Of a DNA stretch of 64,000 nucleotides, positions 9,554 through 33,770 are shown in pieces. The DNA is from Bacilli bacterium (GTDB lineage: Bacteria; Bacillota_I; Bacilli_A; RF39; UBA660), in NCBI GenBank assembly GCA_017410525.1, contig JAFQQQ010000003.1, positions 46,209-110,208 on the forward strand. Direction: 5' to 3'. The position numbers were made by a program, and so were the translations under genes. The notes under the pieces were generated by a model, which had not been told where the DNA came from, searched no databases, and saw only the letters and a program-made list of their open reading frames with translations. Within the stretch, counting starts at the first letter, position 1. Each line of letters starts with the position of its first letter.

Positions 9554-9691
9554 AATTATCACCATAATAATTATAACTTAAATGTTAAAAAAAATAAAGT
9601 TCTATTTACAAATCTCGACAGTTTTTTTAAAAATGTCTGTAAAACCTTTATAATTACATATAATTGTGTTATAATTAAAAAGGTGATACAA

Positions 9692-10723: not shown

Positions 10724-10756
10724 GTAAAAAAAGAAAAAGAGGTTTGAAAAATAAAC

Positions 10757-14322: not shown

Positions 14323-14346
14323 TACATTGGGAAGGAAGATTTTAAT

Positions 14347-15273: not shown

Positions 15274-15284
15274 GAGTGATTTAT

Positions 15285-16244: not shown

Positions 16245-16248
16245 TAAT

Positions 16249-17421
16249 ATGAAAAATATATTATTTGTAGTAGATGATAAAAAAATGGGTGGGGTTTCTA
16301 TATTATTAGAAGATATTTTAAATAGATTAAATTTAAATAAATTTAATATTGATCTTTTAATACTAAAAAATGAAGGCGAATTGTTAAGTAAAATTCCATC
16401 AAAGATAAATATACTTTATGGTGATGAATTTTTTTACCCAATAAATTATTCATTATCTTCTGCAATCAAAGAAAAAAAACTAAAAAAAATAATTGATAAA
16501 GCTTTATTAGTTTTATATATGAAAACACCAATAATAAAATATATAATAAAAAGTAAAAGAAAAAAAATATTAAAAAAACAATATGATACTGAATTGGCTT
16601 TTAAAGATGGTTTTTGTGGACTATTTGTTGGATATGGTGATTCAAAAAGAAAAGTTCAATGGTTACATGCTGATTATTCTAGCCAGGATGATATTCAAAA
16701 TTATAAAACTAAATTTAAAAAATTATATAAAAATTTTGATAGAATTGTGGGAATTTCAAAACCAGTAGCTAAATATTTTAATGATAAGTATGGTTGTGAA
16801 GATAAAACAATTTGTATATATAATTTTGTAAATACACAAAAAGTTATTGAAAAATCTAATGAATATGAAATTAAGAAAGATTCTAAAAAAATTAATTTTG
16901 TCTCTGTAGGAAGATTTCATAAAATGAAAGGGTATTTAAGACTTATACGCGTTATTAATAAATTAAATCAAAATAATGAATTTAATAATTGCCATTTAAC
17001 TATAGTTGGTGATGGTCCGGAATATAATGAAGCTATTAATTTAATAAAAGATTACGATATAGGTGATAAAATTACTTTAATTGGATCTAAACAAAATCCA
17101 TTTCCATATGTAAAAAATTCAGATTGTTTTATTATGGGATCAGTTTATGAACCGTTTGGTTTAACTGTAATTGAAGCATTAACCCTTAAAGTTCCAGTTT
17201 TATCTACTGAGGTTGCTACTATAAGGGAAATGTTATCTAAAGAATATGGATTAATTGTAGAAAACAGTGAAAAAGGTTTATATAATGGATTTAAAAAAAT
17301 AATTAATAATAAAAATTTATTAAAAAATTACAAAAAAAATGTAAAAAATTATCAATATGATACTAAAAAAATAATTAAACAAATAGAAAATTTGTTGGAA
17401 GGGAAGCTACAAAATGAATAA
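16249..17421 (+). CDS. family-4 glycosyltransferase
   Basis: C-terminal EX7E motif (YEPFGLTVIEAL). 390 aa. Confidence 0.75.
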   Translation: MKNILFVVDDKKMGGVSILLEDILNRLNLNKFNIDLLILKNEGELLSKIPSKINILYGDEFFYPINYSLSSAIKEKKLKKIIDKALLVLYMKTPIIKYIIKSKRKKILKKQYDTELAFKDGFCGLFVGYGDSKRKVQWLHADYSSQDDIQNYKTKFKKLYKNFDRIVGISKPVAKYFNDKYGCEDKTICIYNFVNTQKVIEKSNEYEIKKDSKKINFVSVGRFHKMKGYLRLIRVINKLNQNNEFNNCHLTIVGDGPEYNEAINLIKDYDIGDKITLIGSKQNPFPYVKNSDCFIMGSVYEPFGLTVIEALTLKVPVLSTEVATIREMLSKEYGLIVENSEKGLYNGFKKIINNKNLLKNYKKNVKNYQYDTKKIIKQIENLLEGKLQNE

Positions 17422-19933
17422 TTTTTTAAAAGAAGAAACAGTAAAAAAAATGTTATTTTTATTTATAATTATTCAACCATTAATGGATATATATTATTTA
17501 TATACTATTCCTAATTTAGGTGGGGTTTTTGTTTTTTCTCCTTCTACTATAATTAGATTTGTGTTTTTTGGAATTTTATGTTTATTTGCATTTCTAATTT
17601 TAAAAAAGAAAAATAAATTTAAACTTTTATGGTGGTTTATCTGTATAGTATTAATATATACATTATTTCATCATTTAAATTGTTTAAATTATAATAATGA
17701 AATATTAGGAAATCAAACTTATTCCTTAATAACTGAACTTTTTTATATTGCAAGAATGTTAATGCCTATATTATTAATCTATATAAGTTATAATTTTAAA
17801 TTAAGTGAGAAAAAATTAAGTAAAGCATTATTTATTACTGCAGCTATATTTTCTTTTACAATGGTTATAACTAATTTGTTTTTAATTGCAATACCTTCAT
17901 ATGACGGTGCGACAAATATTAAAGTAAATTTTTTACAATGGTTTTCTCTAAAAAATCAAAATATAGAATTTATCTATATTGCGTCAAAAGGTATATTTCA
18001 CATGGCAAATCAAATAAGTGGAACTTTTGTTTTAATATTACCATTGTTAATTTATTATTTTAATAAAAAACATACTTTTTTAAGATTTATAATTATTTGT
18101 TCATTAATTTTGTCAATGCTTATGTTAGGTACTCGCGTTGCTTCGTATGGAGCGATTATTATCTGCATTGCAATGTTTGTTATGTATTTATTTTTCTATA
18201 TTTTAAAAAAAGAATATAATATAAATAAAAAAGTTATAGTTTCTAATTTTTTCCTTATAATCTTTTCAATAGTTTTCTTTTGTTTTAGCCCTGTTGTTTA
18301 TAGAAATTTTACTTCGACTATACCAAGTGATGATTCATATTCAAAAGAACAAACTATTATTAAAAAATATAATACTTTATTAAAGGAAAATAATAAAAAA
18401 GAATTAATCAAATTTATAAAGGAAAACTCATTAATATTTTCTATAAGAGAAAAATATACAAATGAAGTATATCCAGCAGAAAATAATTTAAATTTTTGGA
18501 TAAATACTTTTAATTTACCAATAGAAAAAAGAAATGATGATAGAAAAATTCAACAACTTATATTGGAGGATGTATTTAATAGAAACAATTCTATTTTTGA
18601 TGTTTTTTGTGGGATTGGCTCAAGTAGAGTTAGAAATAGTAGTATATATATTGAAAAAGATTTTATAGTACATTACTATATGCTTGGAGTTTTTGGATTA
18701 TTTGTTTTTATATCTCCTTATGTAATTATCTTATGTTATAGTGTTTTTAAGGTTTTGAGAAGGAATAAACAAACTTTTAATTATAAAAATTGTACTTTTA
18801 TATTTGCTACATTTTTAACTTTGATATGTAGTATTTATAGTGGTAATGTTTTAGATGAATTAATAATTACTGTTTATTTAGGAATTGTATTAGGAACTTT
18901 ATTATCGAATATTAATAATAATAGTTCTAAACAAAAATTAGAGGATAATAAGCTTAAATTAAGTGTTATTGTTCCTGTATATAATGTAGAAAACTATTTG
19001 GAAACATGTTTGGATAGTTTGATAAATCAAACAATTACTAATTATGAAATAATAGTAGTAAATGATGGAAGTCTTGATAGTAGTCAATCTATAATTGATA
19101 AATATCAAAAATTATATCCAGATAAAATAAAAAGTTATATAAAAGAAAACGGTGGGTTAAGTGATGCTAGAAATTATGGATTAAAATATGCAAAAGGGGA
19201 GTATATTGCTTTTCTAGACAGTGATGATTATGTAGAATATAATATGTATGAATTAATGTATAATAAAGCAGTATCACAAAATTTTGATGTTGTAGCATGC
19301 AATGTAAAATATGTATATGAAAATGAAAACAAAACTTTCTTATGTAATTCTAAAATATATTCTGATCTATTTGAAGAAAAAGAAATAAAAAAACTAATGT
19401 TAGATATATATCCTGCTGTATGGAACAAAATTTATAAGAGAGAAAAATTTCAAAAATTTAAATTCAAGAAAAATGCTTGGTTCGAAGATGTTGAATACTT
19501 ATATAGAATTTTTCCTTATATTTCATCTATGGGGACTATTGATAAAGCATTAATAAATTATAAACAAAGAGAAGGTGCAATAACAAAAACTTTTGACGAA
19601 AGATTATTACACCAAATATCTAATTGGAATGGAATTGTTGAGTATTATAAAAAAAATAATTTATTAGAAAAATATGAAAAAGAAATAGAATATTGCTATG
19701 TTAGATATTTATATGCAACTCTAGTAAGTCATTCTTTGAATTATAATAATTATGATTTTTTCAAAAAGGTATTGGATGAATGTGATAAAAATGTAAAAGA
19801 AAACTTCCCTAATTATAGAAAAAATAAGTATTTATATACAAATGGCTTAAAAGGTTTATATTTATTATTTTATAATAAAAAAATTATTAAAAAATTATAT
19901 AAATATAAACATAAAAATGGAGGTAATAAATAA
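17414..19933 (+). CDS. fusion protein: N-terminal polytopic Wzy/O-antigen-ligase-like polymerase domain + C-terminal family-2 glycosyltransferase
   Basis: First ~500 aa carry about 10-12 TM helices in an O-antigen-ligase-like arrangement. Last ~330 aa have GT2 motifs LSVIVPVYNVENYL and DSDDY. Confidence 0.6.
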   Translation: MNNFLKEETVKKMLFLFIIIQPLMDIYYLYTIPNLGGVFVFSPSTIIRFVFFGILCLFAFLILKKKNKFKLLWWFICIVLIYTLFHHLNCLNYNNEILGNQTYSLITELFYIARMLMPILLIYISYNFKLSEKKLSKALFITAAIFSFTMVITNLFLIAIPSYDGATNIKVNFLQWFSLKNQNIEFIYIASKGIFHMANQISGTFVLILPLLIYYFNKKHTFLRFIIICSLILSMLMLGTRVASYGAIIICIAMFVMYLFFYILKKEYNINKKVIVSNFFLIIFSIVFFCFSPVVYRNFTSTIPSDDSYSKEQTIIKKYNTLLKENNKKELIKFIKENSLIFSIREKYTNEVYPAENNLNFWINTFNLPIEKRNDDRKIQQLILEDVFNRNNSIFDVFCGIGSSRVRNSSIYIEKDFIVHYYMLGVFGLFVFISPYVIILCYSVFKVLRRNKQTFNYKNCTFIFATFLTLICSIYSGNVLDELIITVYLGIVLGTLLSNINNNSSKQKLEDNKLKLSVIVPVYNVENYLETCLDSLINQTITNYEIIVVNDGSLDSSQSIIDKYQKLYPDKIKSYIKENGGLSDARNYGLKYAKGEYIAFLDSDDYVEYNMYELMYNKAVSQNFDVVACNVKYVYENENKTFLCNSKIYSDLFEEKEIKKLMLDIYPAVWNKIYKREKFQKFKFKKNAWFEDVEYLYRIFPYISSMGTIDKALINYKQREGAITKTFDERLLHQISNWNGIVEYYKKNNLLEKYEKEIEYCYVRYLYATLVSHSLNYNNYDFFKKVLDECDKNVKENFPNYRKNKYLYTNGLKGLYLLFYNKKIIKKLYKYKHKNGGNK

Positions 19934-21804
19934 TGAATAAATATTTTGATTTATTATATAAAGATAGTTTTATTAAATTTATAAAATTTGTAAAAAATAA
20001 TTTATTAAAAGAGAAAAAAACTTTTATTGTAACAGCTAATCCAGAAACTTTTATGTTTTCTGAAAAAGACAAAGATTTAGAAAATATTATCCTTGATAAA
20101 AATGTAACGATTGTACCAGATGGTATTGGAATTGTTAAAGCTGCTAAAATGATAAATAATCCAGTTAAAGAAAGAATAACTGGAATTGATATAGCCAATG
20201 AATTATTAGATATAGCTAATGAAAATAAATTAAGTTTATATTTATTTGGTTCTGCTAAAGAAGTAATTAAAGCAATGGAAGAAGTAATAAATAAAAAATA
20301 TCCAAATATAAAATTATTAGGCACAAGTGATGGTTATGTCAAAGATAAAGATAAAGTTTTTGAAAAAATAGCTAAATTATCTCCAGATATAGTAATGGTA
20401 GCTCTTGGAATACCAAATCAAGAAAAACTAATTTACAAGCATTACAATAAATTTAAAAAAGGTGTATTTATAGGAGTAGGTGGATCTTTTGACGTTATAA
20501 GTGGTTATAAAAAAAGAGCTCCTAAATTATTTATAAAATTAAATTTAGAATGGTTATATAGAATTTTAAAAGAACCAAAAAGAATAAAGAGATTTTATAA
20601 TAGCAATGTTAAATTTTTAATGAATATTCAAAAAAAAAAATTAAATAATAAAATTAATATATTGTTTTTAATAATTTGTTGTTTAATTTTGTTATTTGGA
20701 TTATTTAATTCTATTTTTAATCCAAAAGACATTAATCAATATGAAAATCGTACTGCATATAAAATACCAAAATTTGAACTGAAAGGTTTTATTAATAAAA
20801 CCTTGCAAGATCAAATTGAACTTTCATTTTCAGATCAAATACCAATGGCCATTCTAATGAAAAAAACATATAATTATATTCAAGCATTCACATCACAACA
20901 AATTACAAATATATTATTAAAAAACAAATGTAATAATTTATATATAAATATAAATGATAGTATTAGTACTTTTGGTTGTGATAAACACTTGGTATATAAG
21001 CAATCAACTCTAAAATCTGATAAAGAGAGTTATAAAAAAAGAATTGAAAATATAAATAAATTTATTAAAAACATGAATGGAAAGGTTTATTTATATTATA
21101 TTGAAAAAGATACAGATATAAATTTTGTTAACAATAAAAAATCTAATATATATGAATATTTAGAAAAAAATATAAATTCAAAAAATATGTATAGATTTGA
21201 AATAAACAATTTTGAAGAGTATAAACAATATTTTTATAAGACAGATCATCATTGGAATTATAAAGGTTCCTATTTAGCATATAAAGATTTAGTTAATATT
21301 TTAACTAATGAGAAACCTTTAAATTTTGAAAATGAAAAATGTATAAATGATTATTTTAGTGGTTCTAAAGCTAGTATAGGTGGTGTTTCATCTATATATA
21401 AAGAACATTTTTGTGCTTATGAATTTGAATTTCCAAAACTTGATATTTATATAAATGGTAAAAAAGAAAACTATGGAAAAGAAGAATATTATTTTAAAAA
21501 AAATAATGAATATGTTTCTTATGCTTTATTTTATGGTGATGATTATGCTGAAATAATATTTGATTCAAATAATTCTAAAAAAGAAAATATTTTAATTATT
21601 GGAGAATCATATGATAATGCTATTTTAAAATTATTATCAACTCACTTTAATAAAACATATTCAATAGATTTGCGTCATTATGAAAAATATGCAGGAGAAA
21701 AATTTAATTATTTTGATTATATTTTAGAAAAAGATATAGATAAAGTTCTTTTAATAGGTAATAAGGATTATTTTTTATTGGAAGACTTCTATTTGGAGGT
21801 ATAA
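19933..21804 (+). CDS. fusion protein: WecB/TagA/CpsF-family (GT26) ManNAc transferase + C-terminal DHHW-family domain
   Basis: N-terminal ~240 aa carry TagA motifs (GVGGSFDVISGYKKRAPK, LEWLYRILKEPKRIKRFY). A TM helix follows. The C-terminal domain contains a literal DHHW motif (KTDHHWNYKGSY). Confidence 0.7.
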   Translation: MNKYFDLLYKDSFIKFIKFVKNNLLKEKKTFIVTANPETFMFSEKDKDLENIILDKNVTIVPDGIGIVKAAKMINNPVKERITGIDIANELLDIANENKLSLYLFGSAKEVIKAMEEVINKKYPNIKLLGTSDGYVKDKDKVFEKIAKLSPDIVMVALGIPNQEKLIYKHYNKFKKGVFIGVGGSFDVISGYKKRAPKLFIKLNLEWLYRILKEPKRIKRFYNSNVKFLMNIQKKKLNNKINILFLIICCLILLFGLFNSIFNPKDINQYENRTAYKIPKFELKGFINKTLQDQIELSFSDQIPMAILMKKTYNYIQAFTSQQITNILLKNKCNNLYININDSISTFGCDKHLVYKQSTLKSDKESYKKRIENINKFIKNMNGKVYLYYIEKDTDINFVNNKKSNIYEYLEKNINSKNMYRFEINNFEEYKQYFYKTDHHWNYKGSYLAYKDLVNILTNEKPLNFENEKCINDYFSGSKASIGGVSSIYKEHFCAYEFEFPKLDIYINGKKENYGKEEYYFKKNNEYVSYALFYGDDYAEIIFDSNNSKKENILIIGESYDNAILKLLSTHFNKTYSIDLRHYEKYAGEKFNYFDYILEKDIDKVLLIGNKDYFLLEDFYLEV

Positions 21805-21807
21805 GAT

Positions 21808-23220
21808 ATGTTATTTAGTAGTTTAACATTTTTATTTGGATTTTTACCTGTTTTATTTTTAATCTACTTTATTTGTCGAAATAATTTTGCTAAAAATATT
21901 ATTTTGCTTCTATTTTCATTAATATTTTATGCTTGGGGAGAACCTAAATACATATTTTTAATGTTGTTTACAGTGTTAATTGTATATATATTTGGCATAT
22001 TAATTGATAGATGTGATAAAACAAAAAAATATATAAGAAAAAAAGTATTTTTTATAATATGTATAGTATTATTAATTTTTAGTTTAGTATTTTTTAAGTA
22101 TAGTAATTTTATCTTTCAGAACATAAATAATATTTTTGGAGCTAATATAAAAACTTTAAAAATAGTATTGCCAATAGGAATTAGTTTTTATACTTTTCAA
22201 ATTCTTTCTTATATTATTGATTTATATAATAAAAAAATAAAGGTACAAAATAATTTTTTTAATTTAGCTTTATATGTTTCATTTTTTCCTCAATTAATTG
22301 CTGGACCGATAGTTAGATATGAAACAATAGAGGAAGAAATTTCTAATAGAAAAGAAAGTTTAGAAAATATAGTTTCTGGAGCTAAAAGATTTATTATAGG
22401 ATTATCAAAAAAAATAATAATTGCTAATCAAATGGCTATATTTGCTGATTTAATTTATAATAATTATTCTGTTTCTTATGGAACATCTATAATTTGGCTT
22501 GCGACAATTGCTTATACATTTCAGATATATTTTGATTTTTCTGGATATAGTGATATGGCTATAGGTTTAGGTAAAATATTTGGATTTAATTTTTTAGAAA
22601 ATTTTGATTATCCATATATATCGACTTCTATTACTGAATTTTGGCGCAGATGGCATATATCTTTATCCAGTTGGTTTAGAGATTATGTATATATACCTTT
22701 AGGAGGAAACAGGGTAAATAAAACTAAATGGATTAGAAATATTATAATTGTTTGGTTGTTAACTGGTTTATGGCATGGTGCTGCTTGGAATTTTATCATT
22801 TGGGGATTATTTTATGGATTTTTACTTTTATTTGAAAAATTATTTTTCAAAAAAGTATTAGATAAATTACCAAAATTTATTTGTTGGTTATATACTATTT
22901 TTATTATATTAATAGGATGGCTAATTTTCAGAGTCAATTCATTAGAACAATTAATAATATATTTAAAAGAAATGTTTATATTTAATAAAACTGATTGGAT
23001 TTTTATTTTATCTAATGAGCTTACAACTTTTAATTCGTTGATTTTTATTATACCAGCAATAATTTTTTCTACACCTATCATAAAAAAAATTAATATAAAA
23101 TTTGGTGGGAAAGTTTGGTATACTACAATTTATAATATAATGTTATTAGTGCTGCTATTAGTATGTATTACTTGTTTGACAAGTTCTTCATATAATCCGT
23201 TCATTTATTTTAGATTTTAA
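21808..23220 (+). CDS. MBOAT-family membrane O-acyltransferase (AlgI/DltB-like) 1
   Basis: Signature FWRRWHISLSSWFRDYVYIPLGG with the catalytic His. Polytopic membrane protein. Confidence 0.85.
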   Translation: MLFSSLTFLFGFLPVLFLIYFICRNNFAKNIILLLFSLIFYAWGEPKYIFLMLFTVLIVYIFGILIDRCDKTKKYIRKKVFFIICIVLLIFSLVFFKYSNFIFQNINNIFGANIKTLKIVLPIGISFYTFQILSYIIDLYNKKIKVQNNFFNLALYVSFFPQLIAGPIVRYETIEEEISNRKESLENIVSGAKRFIIGLSKKIIIANQMAIFADLIYNNYSVSYGTSIIWLATIAYTFQIYFDFSGYSDMAIGLGKIFGFNFLENFDYPYISTSITEFWRRWHISLSSWFRDYVYIPLGGNRVNKTKWIRNIIIVWLLTGLWHGAAWNFIIWGLFYGFLLLFEKLFFKKVLDKLPKFICWLYTIFIILIGWLIFRVNSLEQLIIYLKEMFIFNKTDWIFILSNELTTFNSLIFIIPAIIFSTPIIKKINIKFGGKVWYTTIYNIMLLVLLLVCITCLTSSSYNPFIYFRF

Positions 23221-23247
23221 TAGTTAAAAAAGAGAGGAAGTTTAAAA

Positions 23248-24696
23248 ATGTTGTTTAATTCATTTAAGTTTTTAATTTTTTTTCCAATTGTTACTTGTAT
23301 ATATTTTTTAATAAAAAAAGATAATATTAAATTAATTTGGTTATTGATTTGCAGTTACTTTTTTTACATGTGTTGGAATCCAATTTTTGCTTTATTAATG
23401 TTGTTTTCTACCTTTGTTACTTATATTTTTAGTTTATTAATGGAAAAATACAAAAAGCATAAAAAATTATTTTTAATTTTAAGTTTAATTATAAACTTGT
23501 TAATATTATTTTGTTTTAAATATCTTACTTTTATAATTGAAAATATAAATAATATATTTAAATTCTTCAATATTAGTGGTATAAAAACATTTGATATATT
23601 ATTACCAGTAGGTATTTCATTTTATACATTTCAGGCATTAAGTTATTCTTTTGATGTTTATAGGAATGATGTAAAAGTAGAAAAAAATTTTATAAAATAT
23701 GCACTTTTTGTTTCTTTTTTTCCACAATTAGTAGCTGGTCCCATTGAAAAGTCAAAAATATTTTTGAGTCAGTTTAATTTAAAACACAAATTTGATTATA
23801 ATAAAGTTAAAAACGGTATTTTAATAATGTTAGGTGGTTTTATTTTAAAACTTGTTATTGCTGATCGAGCTGCAATAGCAGTAAATCAAGTATATAATAA
23901 TTTATCATTATATACAGGATTATCATTAATATTAGCAACTGTACTTTTTGCTTTTCAAATATATTGTGATTTTTATGCTTATTCATTAATAGCAAAAGGG
24001 TCTGCACAGGTATTAGGATATAATTTATCACAAAATTTTAATAAACCTTATTTATCAACTAGTATAAAAGATTTTTGGAGAAGGTGGCATATTTCACTTA
24101 GTACTTGGTTTAAGGAATATTTATATGTTCCACTTGGTGGTAGTAAAGTAAGTAAGTTAAAAACAATAAGAAATATTTTAATTGTTTTTTGTGTTAGTGG
24201 TTTATGGCATGGTGCAGCTTGGACATTTCTAATATGGGGGTTATTACACGGATTATATCAAGTTATAGGAATGCTTATTAAAAATATTAGAAATAAAATT
24301 TCAAATATTCTTTTATTAGAAAAACATCCATTAATACACAAAATATTTCAAATAATAATTTGTTTTATACTTGTGGATTTTGCTTGGATTTTCTTTAGAG
24401 CTAATACTTTATATGATGCTTTTTATGTAATAAAAAATATTTTTGATTTTTCAGAAGGATTAAAACTAGCTAATTTTGGTTTATCAAGAGCAAATCTTGT
24501 GTTATTATTCTTCTCTATAGTATGTTTAATGATTTATGAGATATTTAATCATAAGTTTGATATTATAAAATTTATTAATAAAAGAAACATTATTGTTAGA
24601 TGGATTTTATATTTTATAATAATATATATAATACTTATTTTTGGAATTTATGGTCCAGGTTATGATGCTTCTCAATTTATATATTTTCAATTTTAG
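23248..24696 (+). CDS. MBOAT-family membrane O-acyltransferase (AlgI/DltB-like) 2
   Basis: Paralogue of the upstream gene. Signature FWRRWHISLSTWFKEYLYVPLGG. Confidence 0.85.
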   Translation: MLFNSFKFLIFFPIVTCIYFLIKKDNIKLIWLLICSYFFYMCWNPIFALLMLFSTFVTYIFSLLMEKYKKHKKLFLILSLIINLLILFCFKYLTFIIENINNIFKFFNISGIKTFDILLPVGISFYTFQALSYSFDVYRNDVKVEKNFIKYALFVSFFPQLVAGPIEKSKIFLSQFNLKHKFDYNKVKNGILIMLGGFILKLVIADRAAIAVNQVYNNLSLYTGLSLILATVLFAFQIYCDFYAYSLIAKGSAQVLGYNLSQNFNKPYLSTSIKDFWRRWHISLSTWFKEYLYVPLGGSKVSKLKTIRNILIVFCVSGLWHGAAWTFLIWGLLHGLYQVIGMLIKNIRNKISNILLLEKHPLIHKIFQIIICFILVDFAWIFFRANTLYDAFYVIKNIFDFSEGLKLANFGLSRANLVLLFFSIVCLMIYEIFNHKFDIIKFINKRNIIVRWILYFIIIYIILIFGIYGPGYDASQFIYFQF

Positions 24697-24705
24697 GAGG
24701 TATAC

Positions 24706-25647
24706 ATGAAAAAAATTATAATTAAAGTTATTATATTTACAGTTTTATTTTCTATTTCACTTTTTGTAGTTTCAAAAATTTTTGTTAGAAAAGGTGATGG
24801 TTATGGAACTGATGTACTTTCATTCTATAATGAGAAAGAAAATTCTATGGATTTAATATTTTTTGGATCATCACATAGTTATTCAACGTTTTCTCCTAAA
24901 GTTTTAGAAGAAAAAACAGGGTTAAAGTCTTATAATTTTGCAACTCAACAACAACCTCTTTGGATTACATATCATTACATGATTGAAAGTTTAAAGTATC
25001 AAAAACCAAAATATTTTGTTTTGGAAATATTAATGACTAGTGTAAATCAAAGTTATATGGAAGAAGGAGTAAATCGCGATGCAATAGACAAAATGAGATT
25101 TTCATTTAACAAAATACAAGCAATAAATTCTAGTGTTGAAAATTTTTCTGATAGAATAAGTTATTACTTAAATATAATAAAATATCATAGCAGATGGAAT
25201 GAGTTGAGTAAAAAAGATATAGTAGATAATTTAAAAAATAATATCAGTGACTCTAAAGGGTTTACTTATTTAAAAGGAAATGTTGAGCCTGCATATAAAA
25301 ATGATGTTACTAATTTTAAAGAAACTAAAAAGATAACTAAAAAGAATAATTTATATTTAAAAAAGATTATTGAATTAGCTAAAGACAATAATATAGAATT
25401 GATTTTAGTTAAAAGTCCTTGTACAATAACTAAGGAAAATCAAGCTTATTATAATTATGTTGAAGAAATAGCAAAAGAAAATAATATTAAATATTTGAAT
25501 TATAATTTGTTATATGATATACTTGAATTAGATTTTGAAAATGATTTTTATGATAGTGGTCATTTGAAAGGTGAAGCAGCTATAAAAGTAACTAATCATT
25601 TTGCGAAGTATTTGATTGAAAAGTATGATATACAAGGAGGTAAATAA
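24706..25647 (+). CDS. membrane-anchored SGNH/DltD/AlgX-like esterase-acyltransferase partner protein
   Basis: N-terminal TM anchor. GDS-like block FFGSSHSYSTF near the N-terminus. C-terminal DSGHL (DxxH). Confidence 0.55.
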   Translation: MKKIIIKVIIFTVLFSISLFVVSKIFVRKGDGYGTDVLSFYNEKENSMDLIFFGSSHSYSTFSPKVLEEKTGLKSYNFATQQQPLWITYHYMIESLKYQKPKYFVLEILMTSVNQSYMEEGVNRDAIDKMRFSFNKIQAINSSVENFSDRISYYLNIIKYHSRWNELSKKDIVDNLKNNISDSKGFTYLKGNVEPAYKNDVTNFKETKKITKKNNLYLKKIIELAKDNNIELILVKSPCTITKENQAYYNYVEEIAKENNIKYLNYNLLYDILELDFENDFYDSGHLKGEAAIKVTNHFAKYLIEKYDIQGGK

Positions 25648-26756
25648 TGATAAAAGTTATGACTGTTTTTGGAACTAGACCAGAAGCTATAAAAATGGCC
25701 CCGTTAGTTAAGGAGTTAAATTCTAGAGAAGAAATAGAAAGTATAGTATGTGTTACTGCTCAGCATAGAGAGATGTTGGATCAAGTATTAGAAACATTTG
25801 ATATTAAACCTGATTATGATTTAAATATAATGAAACAAGGACAAACATTAGGTGATGTTACTACAAGAGCGCTTAAAGGTCTTGAAGCAGTAATTAAGGA
25901 AATTAATCCTGATATAGTTTTAGTACATGGTGATACTACTACTACTTTTGCAGGAGCTTTAGCCGCCTTCTACAATCAAGTTGATATTGGTCATGTAGAA
26001 GCTGGATTAAGAACTTATGATAAATATTCACCATATCCAGAAGAAATGAATAGACAAATGGTTACTTGTATGACCGATATGTATTTTGCTCCTACAAAAC
26101 TAAGTGCTTCAAATTTAATCAAAGAAGGCAGAGATAAAGAAAAAATATATATTACGGGAAATACCGCTATTGATGCTATGAAAGTCACTATAAATAAAGA
26201 ATATAAAAGCGAGATTTTTGATTGGGTAGGAAATGACAGAATGATTCTTTTAACGGCTCATAGAAGAGAAAATTTGGGTGAACCAATGAAAAATATATTT
26301 AGAGCAATTAAAAGAATAATAAATGAATTTCAAGATGTAAAAGTTGTTTATCCAATACATTTAAATCCCAAAATAAGAGAAATTGCAAACGAGATTTTTA
26401 ATGACTGTGAGAAAATTAAAATAATAGAACCTTTAGAGGTGTTTGATTTCCACAATTTTCAAAATAAATCTTACATAATATTAACAGATAGTGGTGGTAT
26501 TCAAGAAGAAGCTCCATCTTTAGGTAAACCTGTATTAGTATTAAGAGATACTACTGAAAGGCCAGAAGGAATAGAAGCTGGAACATTAAAACTTGTAGGT
26601 ACGGATGAAGAAGTAATATATAGAGAAACAAAACTATTATTAGGTAATAAAAAAATTTACGATAAAATGAGCAAAGCTAGTAATCCATATGGTGATGGAA
26701 AAGCTAGTCAAAGAATAGTAGATGCGATTATTCAAAAATATAGTAAAGCAAAATAA
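25647..26756 (+). CDS. mnaA: UDP-N-acetylglucosamine 2-epimerase (non-hydrolysing; MnaA/WecB)
   Basis: MIKVMTVFGTRPEAIKMAPL and a full-length 369-aa epimerase. Confidence 0.9.
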   Translation: MIKVMTVFGTRPEAIKMAPLVKELNSREEIESIVCVTAQHREMLDQVLETFDIKPDYDLNIMKQGQTLGDVTTRALKGLEAVIKEINPDIVLVHGDTTTTFAGALAAFYNQVDIGHVEAGLRTYDKYSPYPEEMNRQMVTCMTDMYFAPTKLSASNLIKEGRDKEKIYITGNTAIDAMKVTINKEYKSEIFDWVGNDRMILLTAHRRENLGEPMKNIFRAIKRIINEFQDVKVVYPIHLNPKIREIANEIFNDCEKIKIIEPLEVFDFHNFQNKSYIILTDSGGIQEEAPSLGKPVLVLRDTTERPEGIEAGTLKLVGTDEEVIYRETKLLLGNKKIYDKMSKASNPYGDGKASQRIVDAIIQKYSKAK

Positions 26757-26820: not shown

Positions 26821-26849
26821 TTGACAAATATTTTTAAATTTGGTATCAT
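26821..26849 (+). promoter_or_regulatory. sigma-A type promoter for the candidate ncRNA
   Basis: TTGACA (26821-26826), a 17-nt spacer, then TATCAT (26844-26849). Confidence 0.6.
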
Positions 26850-27514: not shown

Positions 27515-27919
27515 ATGGAAGAAAATAAAAATGTTGAGATAGTACAAAATAATAAAGAGATAATGAATGAAGAATTTGCTTCTACTCAACAAGAAGTTGC
27601 AGAAGAAATAGATTCTGATTTTTCTGATATAAATAAAGAAGAAATGAAAAAAAATTATATTATTATAGCAATTCTTTATTTTGTTGTAATTATTTTATTT
27701 ATATTGTTAGTACTAGGTATAAAAAATCAAAAAGATACAGTTAAAGATAAAATAGATAGCAACAAAGAAGTTAATGATAAATTAGAACAAGAAAAAAACG
27801 AGGAAGTTGTTATTCCAGAAGAAAGACCAAAAAATCAAACTCCAGAAGAAATTATTATTCCTGATATAAATAATAATAATGGTTTAAATGATGAATTAAA
27901 TATTTTAGATCAAATATAG
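27515..27919 (+). CDS. hypothetical single-pass membrane protein with acidic N-terminus
   Basis: 134 aa. RBS AGGTGA. One TM helix. Low-complexity, E/K-rich. Confidence 0.5.
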   Translation: MEENKNVEIVQNNKEIMNEEFASTQQEVAEEIDSDFSDINKEEMKKNYIIIAILYFVVIILFILLVLGIKNQKDTVKDKIDSNKEVNDKLEQEKNEEVVIPEERPKNQTPEEIIIPDINNNNGLNDELNILDQI

Positions 27920-27927
27920 AGGTTAAC

Positions 27928-28473
27928 ATGAAAAAAAATAATAAGAAAAAAAATACGGTAGATTATAGTTGGATAATTAAAATAGTGCTTTCTAGTTTTT
28001 TAATATCAGTAGTATTTACACTTATATCAGAAACAGTAATACCTAATGTAGGAATTATATTAGGTTCAATTTTAACATTGGTTTTTATACTTGTAGGAGT
28101 TTTATTTGATATGATTGGTCTTGCTGTTGCAACCGCAGATGAAGCACAATTTAATTCAATGGTAGCTAAAAGGGTTAAAGGTGCTAAAATGGCTTTGAAA
28201 TTAAAGAAAAATGCAGATAAAGTATCAAGTTTTTGTAATGATGTAGTAGGAGATATATGTGGTATAGTATCGGGATCTACAGGCGCAGTTATTGCTATAA
28301 AAATAGTAGAATATTATAATTTTAATCCATTATTAGTTACACTTATTATAATGGGTATAATTTCTGCTTTAACAATAGGTGGTAAAGCGTTAGAAAAGGG
28401 TTATGCTATGAAAAAAAGTAATAGTATTTTATTTGGTTTTGCTAAGTTTTTAAGTTTATTTGTAAAAGAATGA
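27928..28473 (+). CDS. small four-TM membrane protein (OapA-like candidate)
   Basis: 181 aa. Four predicted TM helices. Basic loop KRVKGAKMALKLKKNADK. RBS GAGG. Confidence 0.45.
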   Translation: MKKNNKKKNTVDYSWIIKIVLSSFLISVVFTLISETVIPNVGIILGSILTLVFILVGVLFDMIGLAVATADEAQFNSMVAKRVKGAKMALKLKKNADKVSSFCNDVVGDICGIVSGSTGAVIAIKIVEYYNFNPLLVTLIIMGIISALTIGGKALEKGYAMKKSNSILFGFAKFLSLFVKE

Positions 28474-28481
28474 GGTGTTGT

Positions 28482-29402
28482 ATGAAAAATAAAGGATTCA
28501 CTCTTGTAGAATTATTAGCAGTTCTTATTATACTTGCTATTATATTTGTTATTTCTGTTCCTTTAATGACTGAAATATTAGATCAAAGTAAAAATACGCT
28601 ATATAAAAAACAAATTAATACAATTCTAGATGCAACTTATGATTATTCTTTAAAATATATTGAATATTTACCCGAAGACAATAATATCAGTTATATAACA
28701 CTAGGAGAATTAAAATATGAAGGTATAGTTGATTATGATTTAACTGATCCGGAAACAAATGAAAGATTTAAAAATGAATTAGTCATAAGTATTAACAAAG
28801 TAGGTACAGGATATAAAAATAGTGATATACATGCTAAATTAAAAGGTGACTATTTATATATAGTAGAAGTTGATAAATTAAAAGAAGCTAAAAATTTAAA
28901 ACCCATTATTACTTTGGATGGTTTAACAAAAAATACAGATGGAAATTATATTTTAACACTCGATTTAAATCAAGAAATTAATAATATTGCTTATAGTGCG
29001 ATTTCCGCAAATGGAGTAGATTTAACTAAAAAAGTAAAAAAATATATTTTATTAAATGATATTCCAACTGATAATATCACTACAACTAATTCAGGTATAT
29101 ATAAAGTTCATTATACAGTAGTAGATAACAATGGGTATGCTAATACAGCTACCTTAAGTATTATAATTGCGGATACAACAATACCTACAATTACGCTTCC
29201 AAATACAAATAAAATTGGTAAAGATGTAACAAATTTTGATTTATTAAAAAATGTTACTTGCGAAGATAACAGTGGTTATTGTGATATAGAGTTTTCTGGA
29301 GAAATAGATTATGGTGTTGTTGGAAAATATATAATTACATACACAGCAAAAGATCCAAGTGGAAATACAAGCATAAAGAAAAGAGTAATTACAATAGAAT
29401 AA
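28482..29402 (+). CDS. type IV pilin-like (prepilin N-terminal methylation domain) protein with Ig-like C-terminal region
   Basis: Classic class-III signal MKNKG/FTLVELLAVLIILAII. ATG at 28482 after GAGGTG. C-terminal beta-rich repeats. Confidence 0.65.
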   Translation: MKNKGFTLVELLAVLIILAIIFVISVPLMTEILDQSKNTLYKKQINTILDATYDYSLKYIEYLPEDNNISYITLGELKYEGIVDYDLTDPETNERFKNELVISINKVGTGYKNSDIHAKLKGDYLYIVEVDKLKEAKNLKPIITLDGLTKNTDGNYILTLDLNQEINNIAYSAISANGVDLTKKVKKYILLNDIPTDNITTTNSGIYKVHYTVVDNNGYANTATLSIIIADTTIPTITLPNTNKIGKDVTNFDLLKNVTCEDNSGYCDIEFSGEIDYGVVGKYIITYTAKDPSGNTSIKKRVITIE

Positions 29403-29472
29403 TAAAAATTATTCTTTTTTTTAAGTTTTTGTGGTACAATAGATAACAATTCATAAAAAGGAGAGTATTATA

Positions 29473-31002
29473 ATGAAAAAAATTAAGTTAATTGTATTAG
29501 TTTTATTAATAGTTTTATTAATTATAATTCTTTTTTATGAAATTTTTGGAACAAATTTATCTTACTTATCTTCTAGAGAAATAAAAGAAAATAGAATTTT
29601 AAATACAAATTTAATTACTCAATTAAAAATTAATAATGTAGATGCAATTTACGAAAAAAATACCAATACATTTTATTACACGATTCCAAGTAAATATGAA
29701 AATAATTTATATATTTTAAACTTAAATTTAGAAGATGGATTTAAATATAAAATAATTGATGAAACATTAAATATTATTAAAGTTAATTATACTAAAGAGA
29801 TAAACGTTATCATTTACAATGATAAATATTATTTTGAAACAAAAATACAATTAACAAATCTGCCTTTAATAAATATACTTAGTGAAGATGAAATTACTTC
29901 TAATGATACTAAGACACAGTTTAATTATTTTAATAATACTAATACTAAAAAAACAATTAATTTGAATAGTTTAATCAACATTAGAGGATCAACATCTAAA
30001 TGGTTTGATAAAAAATCTTATAAAATAAATTTTACTAATAAATCGTATACAGATGAAAAAGATATAAATATAGAAAATTTTTATAATGGCGATTCGTTGA
30101 TTTTAGATGCTGTTTATAGGGATCCTTCCAAAATAAGAAATGTTTTATGTATTGAGTTGTGGAATAACATTTCTAATGATTTTAGTAATGTAAATATATA
30201 TAGCGAGTTTGTAGAATTATTTATAAATAATGAATATAAAGGATTATATGTTTTAACTGAACCAATAAATAGAACTAAATTAAATTTAAATAAGACTTCT
30301 TCAAATGACACTAGTGTTATTGTAAAATCAAGTGTATGGGGAAAAATTCTTAATATAAGAGAGTATTATAAAATAGGTGAAAATGAATATTTGTATTATG
30401 AATTGAAATATCCAAATGATAAGAATATGTACGAAAAATCCTGGAATATAGTGTTAAATAAATTATCTAAATATTATAATAATGTAGATTTGTATGATGT
30501 TATAAAAAATAGTTTTAATATAGAAAATTATATTGACATGATAATATTTAATGCATTTACAAATAATGTAGATAATAAAATTGAAAAAAATAATTATTTC
30601 TATATAAATAGTTTAACAGATCCCCAACTGTTTATACAGCCTTGGGATATGGAATATACTTATGGACTTTTATTTGCAGAGAATATGTTTAACAATTTTA
30701 TAAAAAAAGAAGATTATAAAATAATATACACTAAATTTTATCACACAAATTCCTCTGAAATAAATAAATTACTAATAGAAAGATATTGGGAATTAAGAGA
30801 AAATATTTTAACTATAGATTTTTTTGATAGCTTATTAGGTAAATATTTAGATGAATTAACTAAGGGAGCTGCTTCAAGAGATTCAGAGAAGTGGTATGAA
30901 TATGATATAGAAAAAGAAATAGAAGAAATAAGAAGTTGGATTTACAATAGAATAGAATTTTTTGATGAATACGTGGAAAGCATAGAAAATGAAAAATCTT
31001 AG
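29473..31002 (+). CDS. CotH kinase-family protein
   Basis: N-terminal TM helix. CotH-like block NIRGSTSKWFDKKSYKINF. 509 aa. Confidence 0.6.
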   Translation: MKKIKLIVLVLLIVLLIIILFYEIFGTNLSYLSSREIKENRILNTNLITQLKINNVDAIYEKNTNTFYYTIPSKYENNLYILNLNLEDGFKYKIIDETLNIIKVNYTKEINVIIYNDKYYFETKIQLTNLPLINILSEDEITSNDTKTQFNYFNNTNTKKTINLNSLINIRGSTSKWFDKKSYKINFTNKSYTDEKDINIENFYNGDSLILDAVYRDPSKIRNVLCIELWNNISNDFSNVNIYSEFVELFINNEYKGLYVLTEPINRTKLNLNKTSSNDTSVIVKSSVWGKILNIREYYKIGENEYLYYELKYPNDKNMYEKSWNIVLNKLSKYYNNVDLYDVIKNSFNIENYIDMIIFNAFTNNVDNKIEKNNYFYINSLTDPQLFIQPWDMEYTYGLLFAENMFNNFIKKEDYKIIYTKFYHTNSSEINKLLIERYWELRENILTIDFFDSLLGKYLDELTKGAASRDSEKWYEYDIEKEIEEIRSWIYNRIEFFDEYVESIENEKS

Positions 31003-31666
31003 AAATGAATTAAAATATAAAATAACAGATAATGATTTTTATTTGTTAAATCTTAATTTAAAAAACTTAATAAAAAAAGATTCTAATTGTAAAGATGAGT
31101 TTTATAGCATTTCAAGTATTTATTTTGATAATTATAAAAAAACTTCTTATTATCAAGTTAAAAATGGAATAAGTGAAAGATGGAAATATAGAATAAGATT
31201 TTATAACTATGATGATTCATATATAATGTTAGAAAAGAAATATAAAATAAATGGATTAACTAATAAAAATGGTGTTAGAATTACTAGAGAAATGTTAGAT
31301 AATATTTTAAAAGGTAATGTGAAAATTGAAAAAAATCATAATAAATTATTAAACGAATTTATAATTAAAATAAAAACTGAATTATTAAAACCAATAATAT
31401 GTATTGAGTATGATAGAATACCTTATGTATATAAACTTGGAACAGTTAGATTAACTTTGGACTATAATATAAGGTATACAAATAATTATAGTGATTTATT
31501 TAATAAAAATAAAAAAGTGCATTATTTAAAAGATAAAATATTAGAAGTCAAATATAATGAATTAATTCCAGATTTTATAAGATATAGATTAGAATTAAAT
31601 CATTTAGAACAAATATCTTTTTCAAAATTTAATAATTGTATAGACAATTTAAATAGGAGGTTTTAG
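30989..31666 (+). CDS. VTC (polyphosphate-polymerase-like) domain protein
   Basis: ELKYKI..FYSISSIYFD..WKYRIRFYNYDDSYIMLEKKYK matches the bacterial VTC domain pattern. Confidence 0.65.
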   Translation: MKNLRNELKYKITDNDFYLLNLNLKNLIKKDSNCKDEFYSISSIYFDNYKKTSYYQVKNGISERWKYRIRFYNYDDSYIMLEKKYKINGLTNKNGVRITREMLDNILKGNVKIEKNHNKLLNEFIIKIKTELLKPIICIEYDRIPYVYKLGTVRLTLDYNIRYTNNYSDLFNKNKKVHYLKDKILEVKYNELIPDFIRYRLELNHLEQISFSKFNNCIDNLNRRF

Positions 31667-31668
31667 GT

Positions 31669-32349
31669 ATGATTTTAAAAGTAACCTTTGATGAAATATT
31701 TAAAGATAGTTTTTTAAATAATTTTTCATCTAATGTGTCAATTCCAACAATATGTGTGACACTTATATATACATTTTTATTATCTATATTTGTATTCTTT
31801 ATATACAAATTAACTACTAAAAATGTAATATATTCAAAGAAGTTCAATATATCAATGTCTTTGATGTCTATAATAACTGCTGCGATAGTTCTATCTATGC
31901 AAGCAAACATTACAGTATCACTTGGTATGGTTGGAGCTTTATCAATAGTAAGATTTAGAACTGCGATAAAAGAGCCGAGAGATTTACTTTTCTTATTTTG
32001 GAGTATATCTAATGGTATAATAATAGGAGCTCAGGTTTATTCAATGGCAATAGTACTTGCTATTGTGCTTGGTATAGCTATGTTATTCTTTGATATAATT
32101 CCAGAAAAAAAGATTCCATATTTACTAGTTATATATTTTAAAAGTGTAAAAACGAGAGATATAGAAATAATTCTTGGCAGTCATAAAGTAAAATATAAAT
32201 TAAAATCAGAAAATTTATCTAGTAAAGAATCTAGTTATATTTATGAATTAAAAGTTAAGAAAGATAAATCTTTTGTAGAAGAGATATTAAAAATTAAAGG
32301 AGTTAGTGAAGTTAACTTACTAAGTCAAGATGGAGAAAGTCAATATTAA
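31669..32349 (+). CDS. DUF4956 membrane protein
   Basis: SIVRFRTAIKEPRDLLFLFWSI matches the DUF4956 core. Multi-TM. Confidence 0.65.
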   Translation: MILKVTFDEIFKDSFLNNFSSNVSIPTICVTLIYTFLLSIFVFFIYKLTTKNVIYSKKFNISMSLMSIITAAIVLSMQANITVSLGMVGALSIVRFRTAIKEPRDLLFLFWSISNGIIIGAQVYSMAIVLAIVLGIAMLFFDIIPEKKIPYLLVIYFKSVKTRDIEIILGSHKVKYKLKSENLSSKESSYIYELKVKKDKSFVEEILKIKGVSEVNLLSQDGESQY

Positions 32350-32387
32350 ATCAACTTTATTTAGTTGATTTTTTTTATAATTATTAT

Positions 32388-32416
32388 TGACAAAATAGGT
32401 AACATATGTTACCATG
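32388..32416 (+). promoter_or_regulatory. promoter with embedded perfect 16-bp palindromic operator
   Basis: TTGACA at 32388-32393. GGTAACATATGTTACC at 32398-32413 sits between the -35 and -10 regions. RBS GGAGG at 32439. Confidence 0.55.
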
Positions 32417-32455: not shown

Positions 32456-32787
32456 GTGAATAATGATCAACTAAAGATTTTATCAAAAATGAAGAAATTA
32501 ATTAAATTAGGTAAAAGAAGATTCCAAATTAGAGAGACAGAGATTATTTACAAGATTTACTTGAACTAGGCATTAGTGAATCAGAAGCATGGAACGTTAT
32601 TTTAGAATTAAATAAACATTTTTATTTTAATGATCCTAAACCTTCATATTATAAAAACACTGATACATTAATTTTTAAAAAGCAAATAAATGGTATTGTT
32701 GCATATATTAAATTAAAAATTGAAAATAATAATAACCAAGAAGAGATAGTGGTATGTATATCTTTTCATGAAGATAATAGATTTTAA
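32456..32787 (+). pseudogene. MqsR-family (RelE-fold) type II toxin gene, interrupted by a single-nucleotide frameshift
   Basis: Frame 1 (GTG 32456) reads VNNDQLKILSKMKKLIKLGKRRFQIRETE... and stops at 32567. The +1 frame reads DYLQDLLELGISESEAWNVILELNKHFYFND...YIKLKIENNNNQEEIVVCISFHEDNRF and ends at 32787. The joined product aligns along the whole of E. coli MqsR. Confidence 0.6.
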
Positions 32788-32801: not shown

Positions 32802-33770
32802 ATGAAATGTGATATTTGTGGGGGAACAAATACTTATATTAAAAATTACAAGCATGAATATACGATAAAAGGTAGAAATATAGAATTCGAAAGTGAAAGA
32901 TGTTTTTGTATTGAATGTAATTCTATCGTATATGATCAAATATTAGATAATATAGCAAGTGAAAAAGCAATAGATACATATAATAAAAAATATGGTATTT
33001 GTAAAGAAAAAATTATTGAATTAAGAAATAAATATAATTTGTCTTTAGAGTTGTTTGCTAAAATAATTGGATGTGCTAAAAAGACATTAATAAGCTATGA
33101 AAAAGGAACATCTATACCAAACGATAATTATATTATTATTTTAAATAGTTTATTATCAAACCCATTATTAATAATAGATTTGATAGAATCAAATAAAGGT
33201 CAATTCACTCAAAAAGAATATTCAAAATTGCAAGATAAACTTATACAAAACAACAACATAAATCAATTATTTTTTGATACTGATTTTGAACCTACTGTAT
33301 ATAATGGTTATACAAGATTAAATAAGAATAAAGTTTTAAATATGATTTTATTTTTAGCGGACACTACAATTTTAAAAACAAAGTTATTGAAAGAAATGTT
33401 TTATTCAGATTTTTTATATTATAAAAACACTGGTGCCTCAATAACAGGTTTAGAATATGCAAAAATAACACACGGTCCAGTGCCTGATAATTTTGATGAA
33501 ATAATTAGTGCTTATGTAGAACAAGGTTTAATAGATTATAAAATTGAATATGAAAACGATTATGAAAATCATAAAATTAGTAGTATTGATAAATTTAATA
33601 AAAATATTTTTTTAAGTGATGAATTAAAAATTTTAGAACAAGTAAAAAAATATTTTGAATCTTTTACTTCAAAACAAATAGCAGAGTTTTCACATATGGA
33701 AAAGGCATTTACTGAAACTGAATTTAGTAAAAAAATTGAATATGATTATGCCTTTTATTTAAGTTTATAA
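32802..33770 (+). CDS. MqsA-like antitoxin (Zn-ribbon + XRE HTH) fused to a C-terminal Panacea/DUF4065 domain
   Basis: MKCDICGG...KGR...CFCIECN zinc ribbon. HTH LSLELFAKIIGCAKKTLISYEKG. The C-terminal ~190 aa carry the DUF4065 pattern KLLKEMFYSDFLYYKNTGASITGLEYAKITHGPV. Confidence 0.7.
   Translation: MKCDICGGTNTYIKNYKHEYTIKGRNIEFESERCFCIECNSIVYDQILDNIASEKAIDTYNKKYGICKEKIIELRNKYNLSLELFAKIIGCAKKTLISYEKGTSIPNDNYIIILNSLLSNPLLIIDLIESNKGQFTQKEYSKLQDKLIQNNNINQLFFDTDFEPTVYNGYTRLNKNKVLNMILFLADTTILKTKLLKEMFYSDFLYYKNTGASITGLEYAKITHGPVPDNFDEIISAYVEQGLIDYKIEYENDYENHKISSIDKFNKNIFLSDELKILEQVKKYFESFTSKQIAEFSHMEKAFTETEFSKKIEYDYAFYLSL

Follow-up and report, generated by a model that had tools for sequence, protein, structure and literature searches.

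Three adjoining genes on the forward strand of contig JAFQQQ010000003.1 of a Bacilli bacterium (assembly GCA_017410525.1) encode a CotH-family kinase, a VTC-domain protein and a DUF4956 membrane protein. They occupy positions 29473-32349 of the window, that is, of the whole 64,000-nucleotide (nt) stretch analysed here, on which all coordinates are counted. We found that the VTC-DUF4956 pair is the core of this cassette and CotH its usual, non-universal third partner, and that the three genes very probably form one functional module. Hydropathy, structural models and the positive-inside rule predict a layout with VTC inside the cell, DUF4956 in the membrane and CotH outside. We propose, with a probability of roughly 40%, that the whole chain works as a trans-membrane module for polyphosphate or phosphoryl transfer in the service of envelope glycopolymers. 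The initial annotation of this DNA had raised a membrane polyphosphate or phosphoryl-transfer function as a hypothesis, which agrees with the intact tunnel of the VTC protein, its obligate membrane partner and a predicted ecto-CotH.

The steps of the proposed mechanism are of unequal strength. Judging from residue conservation, the cytoplasmic VTC protein would build inorganic polyphosphate from ATP at the membrane, and we give about an even chance to polyphosphate being its product. DUF4956, as obligate partner, may dock VTC at the membrane and gate or conduct the product, a role resembling that of the Vtc1/3/4 transmembrane channel in yeast, though without sequence relation. An anchored CotH on the outer face might act on or with the exported phosphate polymer, which was proposed because ATP is scarce outside bacterial cells; more speculatively, the polymer could be its phosphoryl donor, or CotH could fasten or arrange the polymer on glycopolymers or proteins of the cell surface. 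The envelope polysaccharides served would be of the kind made by the teichoic-acid or secondary-wall-polysaccharide type cluster of this window, and Pel in streptococci. That the VTC product reaches CotH across the membrane we hold to be rather unlikely. The most elaborate version seems improbable, namely a PPK-independent, VTC-like system in which polyphosphate is made by a Vtc4-type polymerase and exported via an oligomeric DUF4956 conduit, and in which ecto-CotH takes it in place of ATP as phosphoryl donor, or anchors it, so as to phosphorylate or cross-link wall glycopolymers, for instance Pel or polysaccharides resembling teichoic acid.

Organization of the Cassette

The genes lie on the + strand at 29473..31002 (cotH, 509 amino acids), 30989..31666 (VTC gene, 225 amino acids) and 31669..32349 (DUF4956 gene, 226 amino acids), exactly where the initial annotation had placed three overlapping or abutting genes. 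Their products are a CotH-family kinase predicted to be extracytoplasmic, a stand-alone VTC-type triphosphate tunnel enzyme predicted to be cytoplasmic and polyphosphate polymerase-like, and a polytopic membrane protein. The cotH and VTC reading frames share 14 nt, and the VTC stop is spaced 2 nt from the DUF4956 start, with AGGAGG within the VTC 3' end. An intrinsic terminator (32348..32379, +; 9-bp stem, 6-nt loop, T8) overlaps the DUF4956 stop codon; its predicted fold of -8.1 kcal/mol (z -4.6) was matched in stability by none of 200 shuffles. Because of the 14-nt overlap, the 2-nt spacing and the terminator after the third gene, the three genes were treated as one translationally coupled unit. 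Inspection of the 70-nt gap 5' of cotH revealed a putative promoter and ribosome-binding site (29425..29472, +), consisting of the extended -10 element TGGTACAAT and the GGAG-type site AAAGGAGAG 8 nt 5' of the ATG. A promoter of the cassette's own is only a suggestion from the sequence; the window is strongly AT-rich (approximately 23% GC), and a consensus promoter scan of its DNA gave no enrichment over shuffles. A hairpin followed by T8 5' of cotH (approximately 29396-29423; -4.7 kcal/mol, z -0.69) was not distinct from shuffles and was rejected.

Hidden Markov model (HMM) searches placed all three proteins above the Pfam curated thresholds, as CotH (PF08757, E 8.8e-37, 127.7 bits with a threshold of 23.8, positions 1-320 of the 322 in the profile), VTC (PF09359, E 4e-34, 118.6 bits against 23, positions 2-233 of 235) and DUF4956 (PF16316, E 4e-10, 40.1 bits against 30.6, positions 6-103 of 169 only). 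These are the families named in the initial annotation, whose accession for DUF4956, PF14344, was wrong and is replaced here by PF16316. Identical or near-identical proteins are named at NCBI "CotH kinase family protein", "polyphosphate polymerase domain-containing protein" and "DUF4956 domain-containing protein", and NCBIfam held no model matching any of the three. Considering that phmmer with each single protein found no matches in PDB, profiles were used for the structural comparisons below.

Conservation of the Gene Set

A genome scan with two DUF4956 peptide patterns (SLGMVGALS or K[ED]PRDLLFL), one genome per species, recovered at least 600 matching stretches; of the 600 listed, 599 were confirmed relatives. 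The best 80 of these stretches formed the locus set, so that all co-occurrence figures are conditional on DUF4956 and on this choice of the best 80, and they were searched with HMMs built for VTC and CotH. VTC adjoined DUF4956 in 76 of the 80 loci. CotH was present in 64 and at most 3 kb away in 63; the initial CotH HMM, built from close relatives, had found approximately 30 loci, three iterations raised this to 64, and six of the most divergent matches were verified as Pfam CotH. When counting was confined to the 52 loci flanked on each side by 3 kb or more, VTC was found in 48 (92%) and CotH, within 3.5 kb, in 41 (79%). The initial annotation had expected all three genes to be co-conserved, which holds for the VTC-DUF4956 pair, while CotH is frequent and not universal.

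Denoting the genes by their initials, the orders were CVD (35 loci), VDC (15), VD (15), cVD (3), CCVD (3), DVC (3) and a few others, and across loci the cassette genes often overlapped by 1-4 nt, including stop/start codons. Because the order is shuffled yet adjacency is preserved, the linkage itself appears to be under selection. The majority of the 80 loci came from Lachnospiraceae and Oscillospiraceae, and the survey bore out the recurrence of the triad in Clostridia claimed initially. Other carriers were Bacillaceae, Paenibacillus, Lysinibacillus, Cytobacillus, Trichococcus and Clostridium, and further loci stood on contigs labelled Treponema, Caldisericia, Mariniplasma and Bacteroides. 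Recurrence of the triad in Bacteroidetes, also claimed initially, found no confirmation in the survey, where the sole locus with the last label (L041) contained VTC and DUF4956 on a stretch that ends 248 nt past DUF4956. Of the three proteins, CotH diverged fastest in each of the 31 loci that could be compared, the median identities being 24% for CotH, 34% for VTC and 42% for DUF4956; the closest relatives shared 61-65%, 77-81% and 94-95%, respectively. This is the pattern expected if CotH is exposed and its membrane partner strongly constrained.

DUF4956: A Possible Conduit or Regulator

More than 7,700 DUF4956 homologs were found at E ≤ 1e-3. The AlphaFold2 (AF2) model of the window protein (mean predicted local distance difference test, pLDDT, 76) has five predicted helices (25-49, 57-78, 85-99, 103-120 and 124-141), in line with the polytopic nature noted initially, and a C-terminal ACT-like beta-alpha-beta-beta-alpha-beta domain (151-219). 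Because the Lys-rich loop 47-58 is set inside and there are five helices, the topology is predicted as N-out, C-in, so that an invariant basic loop would lie on the cytoplasmic side together with the ACT-like domain. This loop, R95-F-R97-T-x-x-K101-x-P-x-D105, falls within SIVRFRTAIKEPRDLLFLFWSI (residues 92-113), and R95, R97, K101, D105 and W111 were invariant in all 80 loci. Conservation within both recovery patterns is partly built in; K101 and D105 lie within the second pattern, and R95, R97 and W111 lie outside both. Residue R104 is Met in 51 of the 80 loci, and therefore most loci must have come via the first pattern. Comparison of the DUF4956 profile with the PDB sequences gave no match.

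This architecture recalls the MgtC/SapB proteins (Salmonella MgtC, E. coli YhiD; C-domains 2lqj and 7qa5), which likewise combine a Gly-rich polytopic domain with a cytoplasmic ACT-like domain; the RFRT..K.P.D loop, in contrast, is specific to DUF4956. The likeness opens the main rival explanation, an intracellular phosphate or energy regulator, which we regard as unlikely. In it, VTC makes or senses polyphosphate at the inner side of the membrane, nothing crosses the membrane and DUF4956 is an MgtC-like regulator that would sense a metabolite by its ACT-like domain and modulate other membrane machinery, for example polysaccharide synthases or ATP synthase. CotH would then be merely co-regulated, using another donor to modify the same envelope polymer or its proteins. 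The link to MgtC is weak: Pfam MgtC (PF02308) scored below threshold on DUF4956 (E 3.9, 8.3 bits against a cut-off of 31.4), hhalign against E. coli YhiD was co-linear over 132 columns at a probability of only 35%, and the ACT fold is very common. The architecture may thus be called MgtC-like, though by Pfam the protein does not belong to that family and the hhalign result is only suggestive. Moreover, such a regulator gives no account of why the most frequent third partner (79%), and this in several gene orders, is a secreted or anchored CotH, and it leaves unsaid the phosphoryl donor of an outside kinase.

VTC: A Possible Polymerase or Hydrolase

The VTC protein has no hydrophobic or transmembrane segment, no signal and no SPX domain. 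Searched singly against 1.84 billion cluster representatives, it matched 3,047 clusters at 50% identity (E ≤ 1e-3), and among the matches listed the relatives were almost all stand-alone proteins of approximately 225-240 amino acids. When a 70-sequence profile was compared with PDB, its best match was the yeast Vtc4 catalytic domain (3g3q, E 6.3e-12); Vtc2 scored less well, and there was no meaningful match beyond these two. In the 3g3q alignment, window residues R5, K9, R68, R70, K84, K93 and Y141 correspond to Vtc4 R196, K200, R264, R266, K281, K294 and Y359, and R143, R154, E186, K188, S212 and K213 to R361, R373, E426, K428, S457 and K458. All 13 mapped tunnel residues were 100% conserved wherever aligned in 76 diverse loci; the wider list of Vtc4 tunnel residues is reportedly that of Hothorn et al. 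in 2009. Because of this complete conservation, the VTC protein is under selection as an enzyme. The set includes the positions of R264A/R266A/E426N, the standard catalytically dead Vtc4 mutant, with which yeast VTC is inactive (PMC9911596), and the catalytic lysine K458 (PMC4641920).

Hydrolases among the triphosphate tunnel metalloenzymes (TTM) build a second metal site from an acidic patch of four glutamates; in Vtc4, basic residues stand in their place and steer the chain as it grows (PMC4641920). In the window protein, the acidic-patch positions R5 and K188 are basic as in Vtc4, and so are K84 and K93, one or the other of which we infer to be the equivalent of AtTTM3 Glu-90 and took as the third acidic-patch position. 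The family motifs are R-x-E-x-K at strand 1 and E-V-K at the strand of the invariant Glu. Position 7, Thr198 in Vtc4, is a Glu (E7) that equals one acidic-patch glutamate of the hydrolase ExExK motif, and the hybrid R-x-E-x-K was kept without exception, both in the 70 diverse representatives of the family and in the 74 locus sequences aligned. The protein therefore reads as polymerase-like with a bacterial-specific twist at E7.

Since E7 is invariant, a different activity was kept under consideration, namely hydrolase or cyclase chemistry in the tunnel fold of VTC (as a tripolyphosphatase, NTPase, polyphosphatase or nucleotide cyclase); the ACT-like domain of DUF4956 would then read the level of the VTC product or substrate, and DUF4956 would signal to the envelope. 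The characterised bacterial TTM enzymes are mostly hydrolases or cyclases, and AtTTM3 shares the tunnel centre with Vtc4 and does not polymerise (PMC4641920). Nevertheless, the remaining assignable acidic-patch positions are basic, whereas metal site 2 of ygiF consists of three acidic-patch glutamates (PMC4641920). The protein also belongs to Pfam VTC rather than CYTH, its best PDB matches are only Vtc4 and Vtc2, and the equivalent of K458 is invariant here, yet dispensable in the hydrolase AtTTM3. We consider this explanation quite improbable beside a polymerase-like VTC.

CotH: An Intact Kinase Predicted to Lie Outside

The AF2 model of CotH (pLDDT 88, predicted TM-score 0.85) consists of a membrane anchor (approximately 2-25), an Ig-like beta domain (approximately 59-136) and the kinase domain (approximately 146-509). 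A strong hydrophobic segment at residues 6-24 (Kyte-Doolittle score 3.4), modelled as a helix at 2-25, follows a short Lys-rich N-terminus, and the membrane anchoring proposed initially stands. From this Lys-rich N-terminus and hydrophobic helix, the positive-inside rule predicts that the kinase domain is on the outer side of the membrane. A hydrophobic segment preceded the kinase domain in 66 of 69 cassette-linked CotH open reading frames (ORFs), the other three being fragments or cut by a contig end, and 9 of the 69 had an additional C-terminal one.

A 29-sequence CotH profile matched the PDB entry of B. cereus CotH (5jd9, E 1.1e-12), and Foldseek aligned the model with the same atypical protein-kinase fold (E 3e-16, TM-score 0.72 normalised to the target). 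D367 (NNVDN) and D392 (PWDME) align with the aspartates in FD and WD of 5jd9. A distance of 23 residues separates these two, as it does D228 and D251 of B. subtilis CotH, where D228Q and D251A are kinase-dead (PMC7821199). Both aspartates were invariant among 29 close homologs, and of 65 distant cassette-linked homologs one aspartate was kept in 56 and the other in 61. The catalytic core is thus intact, and protein-kinase activity is predicted; because the predicted location is extracytoplasmic, the phosphoryl donor is uncertain.

The Bacillus spore-coat Ser/Thr kinase (5jd9, 5jda) shares the atypical fold and both catalytic aspartates with the window protein at an identity of approximately 17%. 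The only characterised bacterial CotH is this spore-coat kinase (PMC7821199), and some loci come from the spore-formers Paenibacillus, Lysinibacillus, Cytobacillus and Clostridium, so the cassette might be read as a sporulation system in which the neighbours of CotH are coat or forespore-membrane accessories. This is very improbable. The window CotH adds an N-terminal anchor and the Ig-like domain, and the linked CotH proteins almost all carry an anchor or signal peptide; the B. cereus chain has 359 residues and the alignment enters it at residue 37, leaving no room for the two additions together. The predicted place of the window protein is extracytoplasmic instead of the mother-cell cytoplasm or coat. 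Moreover, the cassette occurs in non-sporulating streptococci and bifidobacteria and in the loci labelled Treponema, Caldisericia and Mariniplasma, and its neighbours are glycopolymer genes, not coat genes. Finally, although AT-richness inflates ORF calls generally, chance adjacency or an annotation artefact is hardly credible given the strong Pfam scores, catalytic residues under purifying selection, co-occurrence over 80 genomes with shuffled orders, and identical proteins on independent metagenome contigs. PADLOC gave no hits for the triad, which disfavours a role in anti-phage defence.

Envelope Polysaccharide Context

A wall-glycopolymer cluster of approximately 17 kb (9683-26756, +) lies 5' of the cassette. 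It contains a GT4 priming glycosyltransferase (GT), a flippase, Caps_synth, a TagF-like CDP-glycerol glycerophosphotransferase, GT2 and GT1 enzymes, a fusion of an O-antigen-ligase-like protein with GT2 (839 amino acids), a WecG/TagA-DHHW fusion, a UDP-GlcNAc 2-epimerase, and two MBOAT O-acyltransferases with a 313-amino-acid partner without Pfam match. An LtaS-like sulfatase-fold gene is present 3' of the cassette. No Pel-specific families were detected in approximately 20 kb upstream or among the downstream genes of the window.

The flanks of 47 other loci (at most 3 genes per side, 231 flanking proteins) were surveyed by blast clustering and Pfam. GT2 accounted for 28 of the 231 proteins and Bac_transf for 9; LCP ligases were found in 12 loci and a pair of histidine kinase and response regulator in 10. 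ABC and ABC-2 transport genes, GtrA, sugar-nucleotide enzymes and Cthe_2159-type proteins also recurred, and PelG was absent from the recurrent flanking families. The module is thus embedded in envelope-polysaccharide biology generally, beyond Pel. In addition, secreted purple-acid-phosphatase-like metallophosphoesterases (Pur_ac_phosph_N + Metallophos) recurred beside the triad in several genomes, that of Paenibacillus luteus among them; they were seen at 5842-7089 (-) of L059 and as a protein cluster in 5 loci. They may be partners that process phosphoesters or polyphosphate outside the cell.

Comparison with Known Systems

The initial annotation called the triad essentially uncharacterised. 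This remains right in that it has no known biochemical function, and needs a slight correction in that the genes had been reported as an accessory set of pel (PMC7112168) and some of them deleted in S. intermedius in 2025 (PMC12345266). Among the accessory genes of Gram-positive pel operons are cotH, DUF4956 and a gene for a polyphosphate polymerase, with or without DUF4832 (Whitfield et al. 2020; bioRxiv 10.1101/768473, PMC7112168), a pel-contiguous set found in streptococci, clostridia and bifidobacteria (bioRxiv 10.1101/768473). In S. intermedius, the cassette is formed by SIR_1594 (a secreted CotH-FN3 protein), SIR_1593 and SIR_1592 (DUF4956-like), and the 2025 report describes altered Pel levels and reduced aggregation after deletion of SIR_1592 and SIR_1594 (PMC12345266). 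Its authors there suggest a link to phosphate metabolism and call the DUF4956-like protein MgtC-like in architecture (PMC12345266).

The window and the Pel cassette share the three families in a tight cluster and the association with exopolysaccharide; in both, CotH is secreted or anchored, the VTC domain stands alone and the polytopic protein has an ACT-like C-terminus. They differ in that the window has no contiguous pelDEA(DA)FG detected and no DUF4832, with a flippase/TagF/WecG-type glycopolymer cluster instead, and in that its CotH bears an N-terminal Ig-like domain, not a C-terminal FN3. The same report states that the three-gene synteny was not found outside Pel loci (PMC12345266), whereas the present survey finds the triad mostly in other glycopolymer contexts. 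The cassette is therefore already described beside pel; the present analysis adds its occurrence in a non-Pel context, a topology that is consistent across loci and the conservation of catalytic residues. In NELoc-2 of C. perfringens, VTC genes are each followed by a membrane protein of approximately 220 amino acids called "tubulin/FtsZ", with CotH adjoining (PMC2879425); we suspect that this protein is a misannotated DUF4956.

The eukaryotic VTC complex (PDB 3g3q, 8i6v, 7ytj) has a homologous tunnel domain, all checked polymerase residues of which are conserved here, and it likewise pairs a soluble catalytic domain obligatorily with a membrane component. The conserved basic residues of DUF4956, on its presumed cytoplasmic face, would be the analogue of a basic belt in yeast, which leads to the channel. 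In contrast, the window has no SPX sensor, a catalytic domain on a separate polypeptide and no DUF202-type transmembrane subunits; its membrane partner, with five helices and an ACT-like domain, is unrelated to the three-helix Vtc transmembrane domains; E7 replaces Vtc4 Thr198; and the extracytoplasmic CotH partner has no yeast equivalent. The cassette may work like the VTC complex and is not a member of that system.

Weight and Implications of the Proposed Module

Several observations weigh against a trans-membrane polyphosphate module. We know of no CotH that uses polyphosphate, the sole characterised one using ATP on spore-coat proteins, and MgtC-type proteins are, to our knowledge, regulators rather than channels. 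DUF4956 does not resemble the transmembrane channel of Vtc in sequence or fold, its topology and that of CotH are derived from hydropathy and the positive-inside rule, and E7 is a hydrolase-type residue in the VTC tunnel. Approximately 21% of the complete loci have no CotH nearby; in L018, L026, L035, L038, L044, L063, L065, L068, L080 and L082, the VTC-DUF4956 pair has flanks of several kb and no CotH within 3.5 kb. No biochemical study of a bacterial VTC-domain protein was found in the searchable literature, where further mentions of DUF4956 were expression tables only. The changes given in the available text on S. intermedius concern the DUF4956-like and CotH mutants, none being given for the VTC gene (PMC12345266).

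Nevertheless, the layout together with polymerase-grade conservation poses a testable question, whether a bacterial VTC-like polyphosphate system feeds an extracellular kinase. PPK1 and PPK2 are the enzymes credited with making polyphosphate in bacteria, and a Vtc4-like enzyme, if active, would be a widespread third route. The inside/membrane/outside arrangement hints at how a kinase could work outside the cell, where ATP is scarce. If the most elaborate version is true, it would bring a new route of polyphosphate synthesis, a new family of membrane translocators and the first polyphosphate-driven extracellular kinase. The cassette also affects aggregation in an opportunistic streptococcus, and our survey, which finds it attached to many envelope glycopolymer loci in gut and rumen Firmicutes, widens where its function is to be sought.

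Other Features near the Cassette

The apparent 760-nt gene-free gap between the glycopolymer cluster and two small membrane-protein genes is occupied by a full-length OLE (Ornate Large Extremophilic) RNA (RF01071; 26845-27449, +; 374 bits, E 2.5e-106, model positions 1-616 of 616), directly preceded by the near-consensus promoter TTGACA-17-TATCAT with TG (26821-26849). The two genes directly 3' of it lie at 27515-27919 and 27928-28473 (+). The product of the second (181 amino acids) has a CNNM/DUF21-like transmembrane domain (PF01595, E 2.8e-8) and matched no NCBIfam model; we take this gene to be probably oapA, encoding the OLE-associated membrane protein. Overlapping it by 4 nt, the next gene (28470-29402, +) encodes a protein of prepilin type. 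Its N-terminus has a methylation motif (PF07963, TIGR02532), and its C-terminus is formed by a bacterial Ig-like surface domain. OLE RNA, the CNNM-like gene and the pseudopilin gene were rejected as parts of the module, as they accompany the triad only in its closest relatives, L003 and L004.

Downstream of the cassette, a promoter-like TTGACA-17-TACCAT (32387-32415) precedes an MqsR-like toxin gene (32456-32787, +) that is apparently split by a frameshift near 32530-32570. The joined frames matched MqsR_toxin (PF15723, E 1.6e-5, profile positions 6-95 of 95) with 25.7 bits against a cut-off of 26.2, and the split gene could be a pseudogene or an assembly error. It is followed by an unusual antitoxin fusion (32802-33770, +), in which an N-terminal MqsA-type zinc-ribbon and helix-turn-helix part (PF15731, TIGR03830) is joined to a C-terminal SocA/Panacea domain (PF13274, E 1.2e-16).

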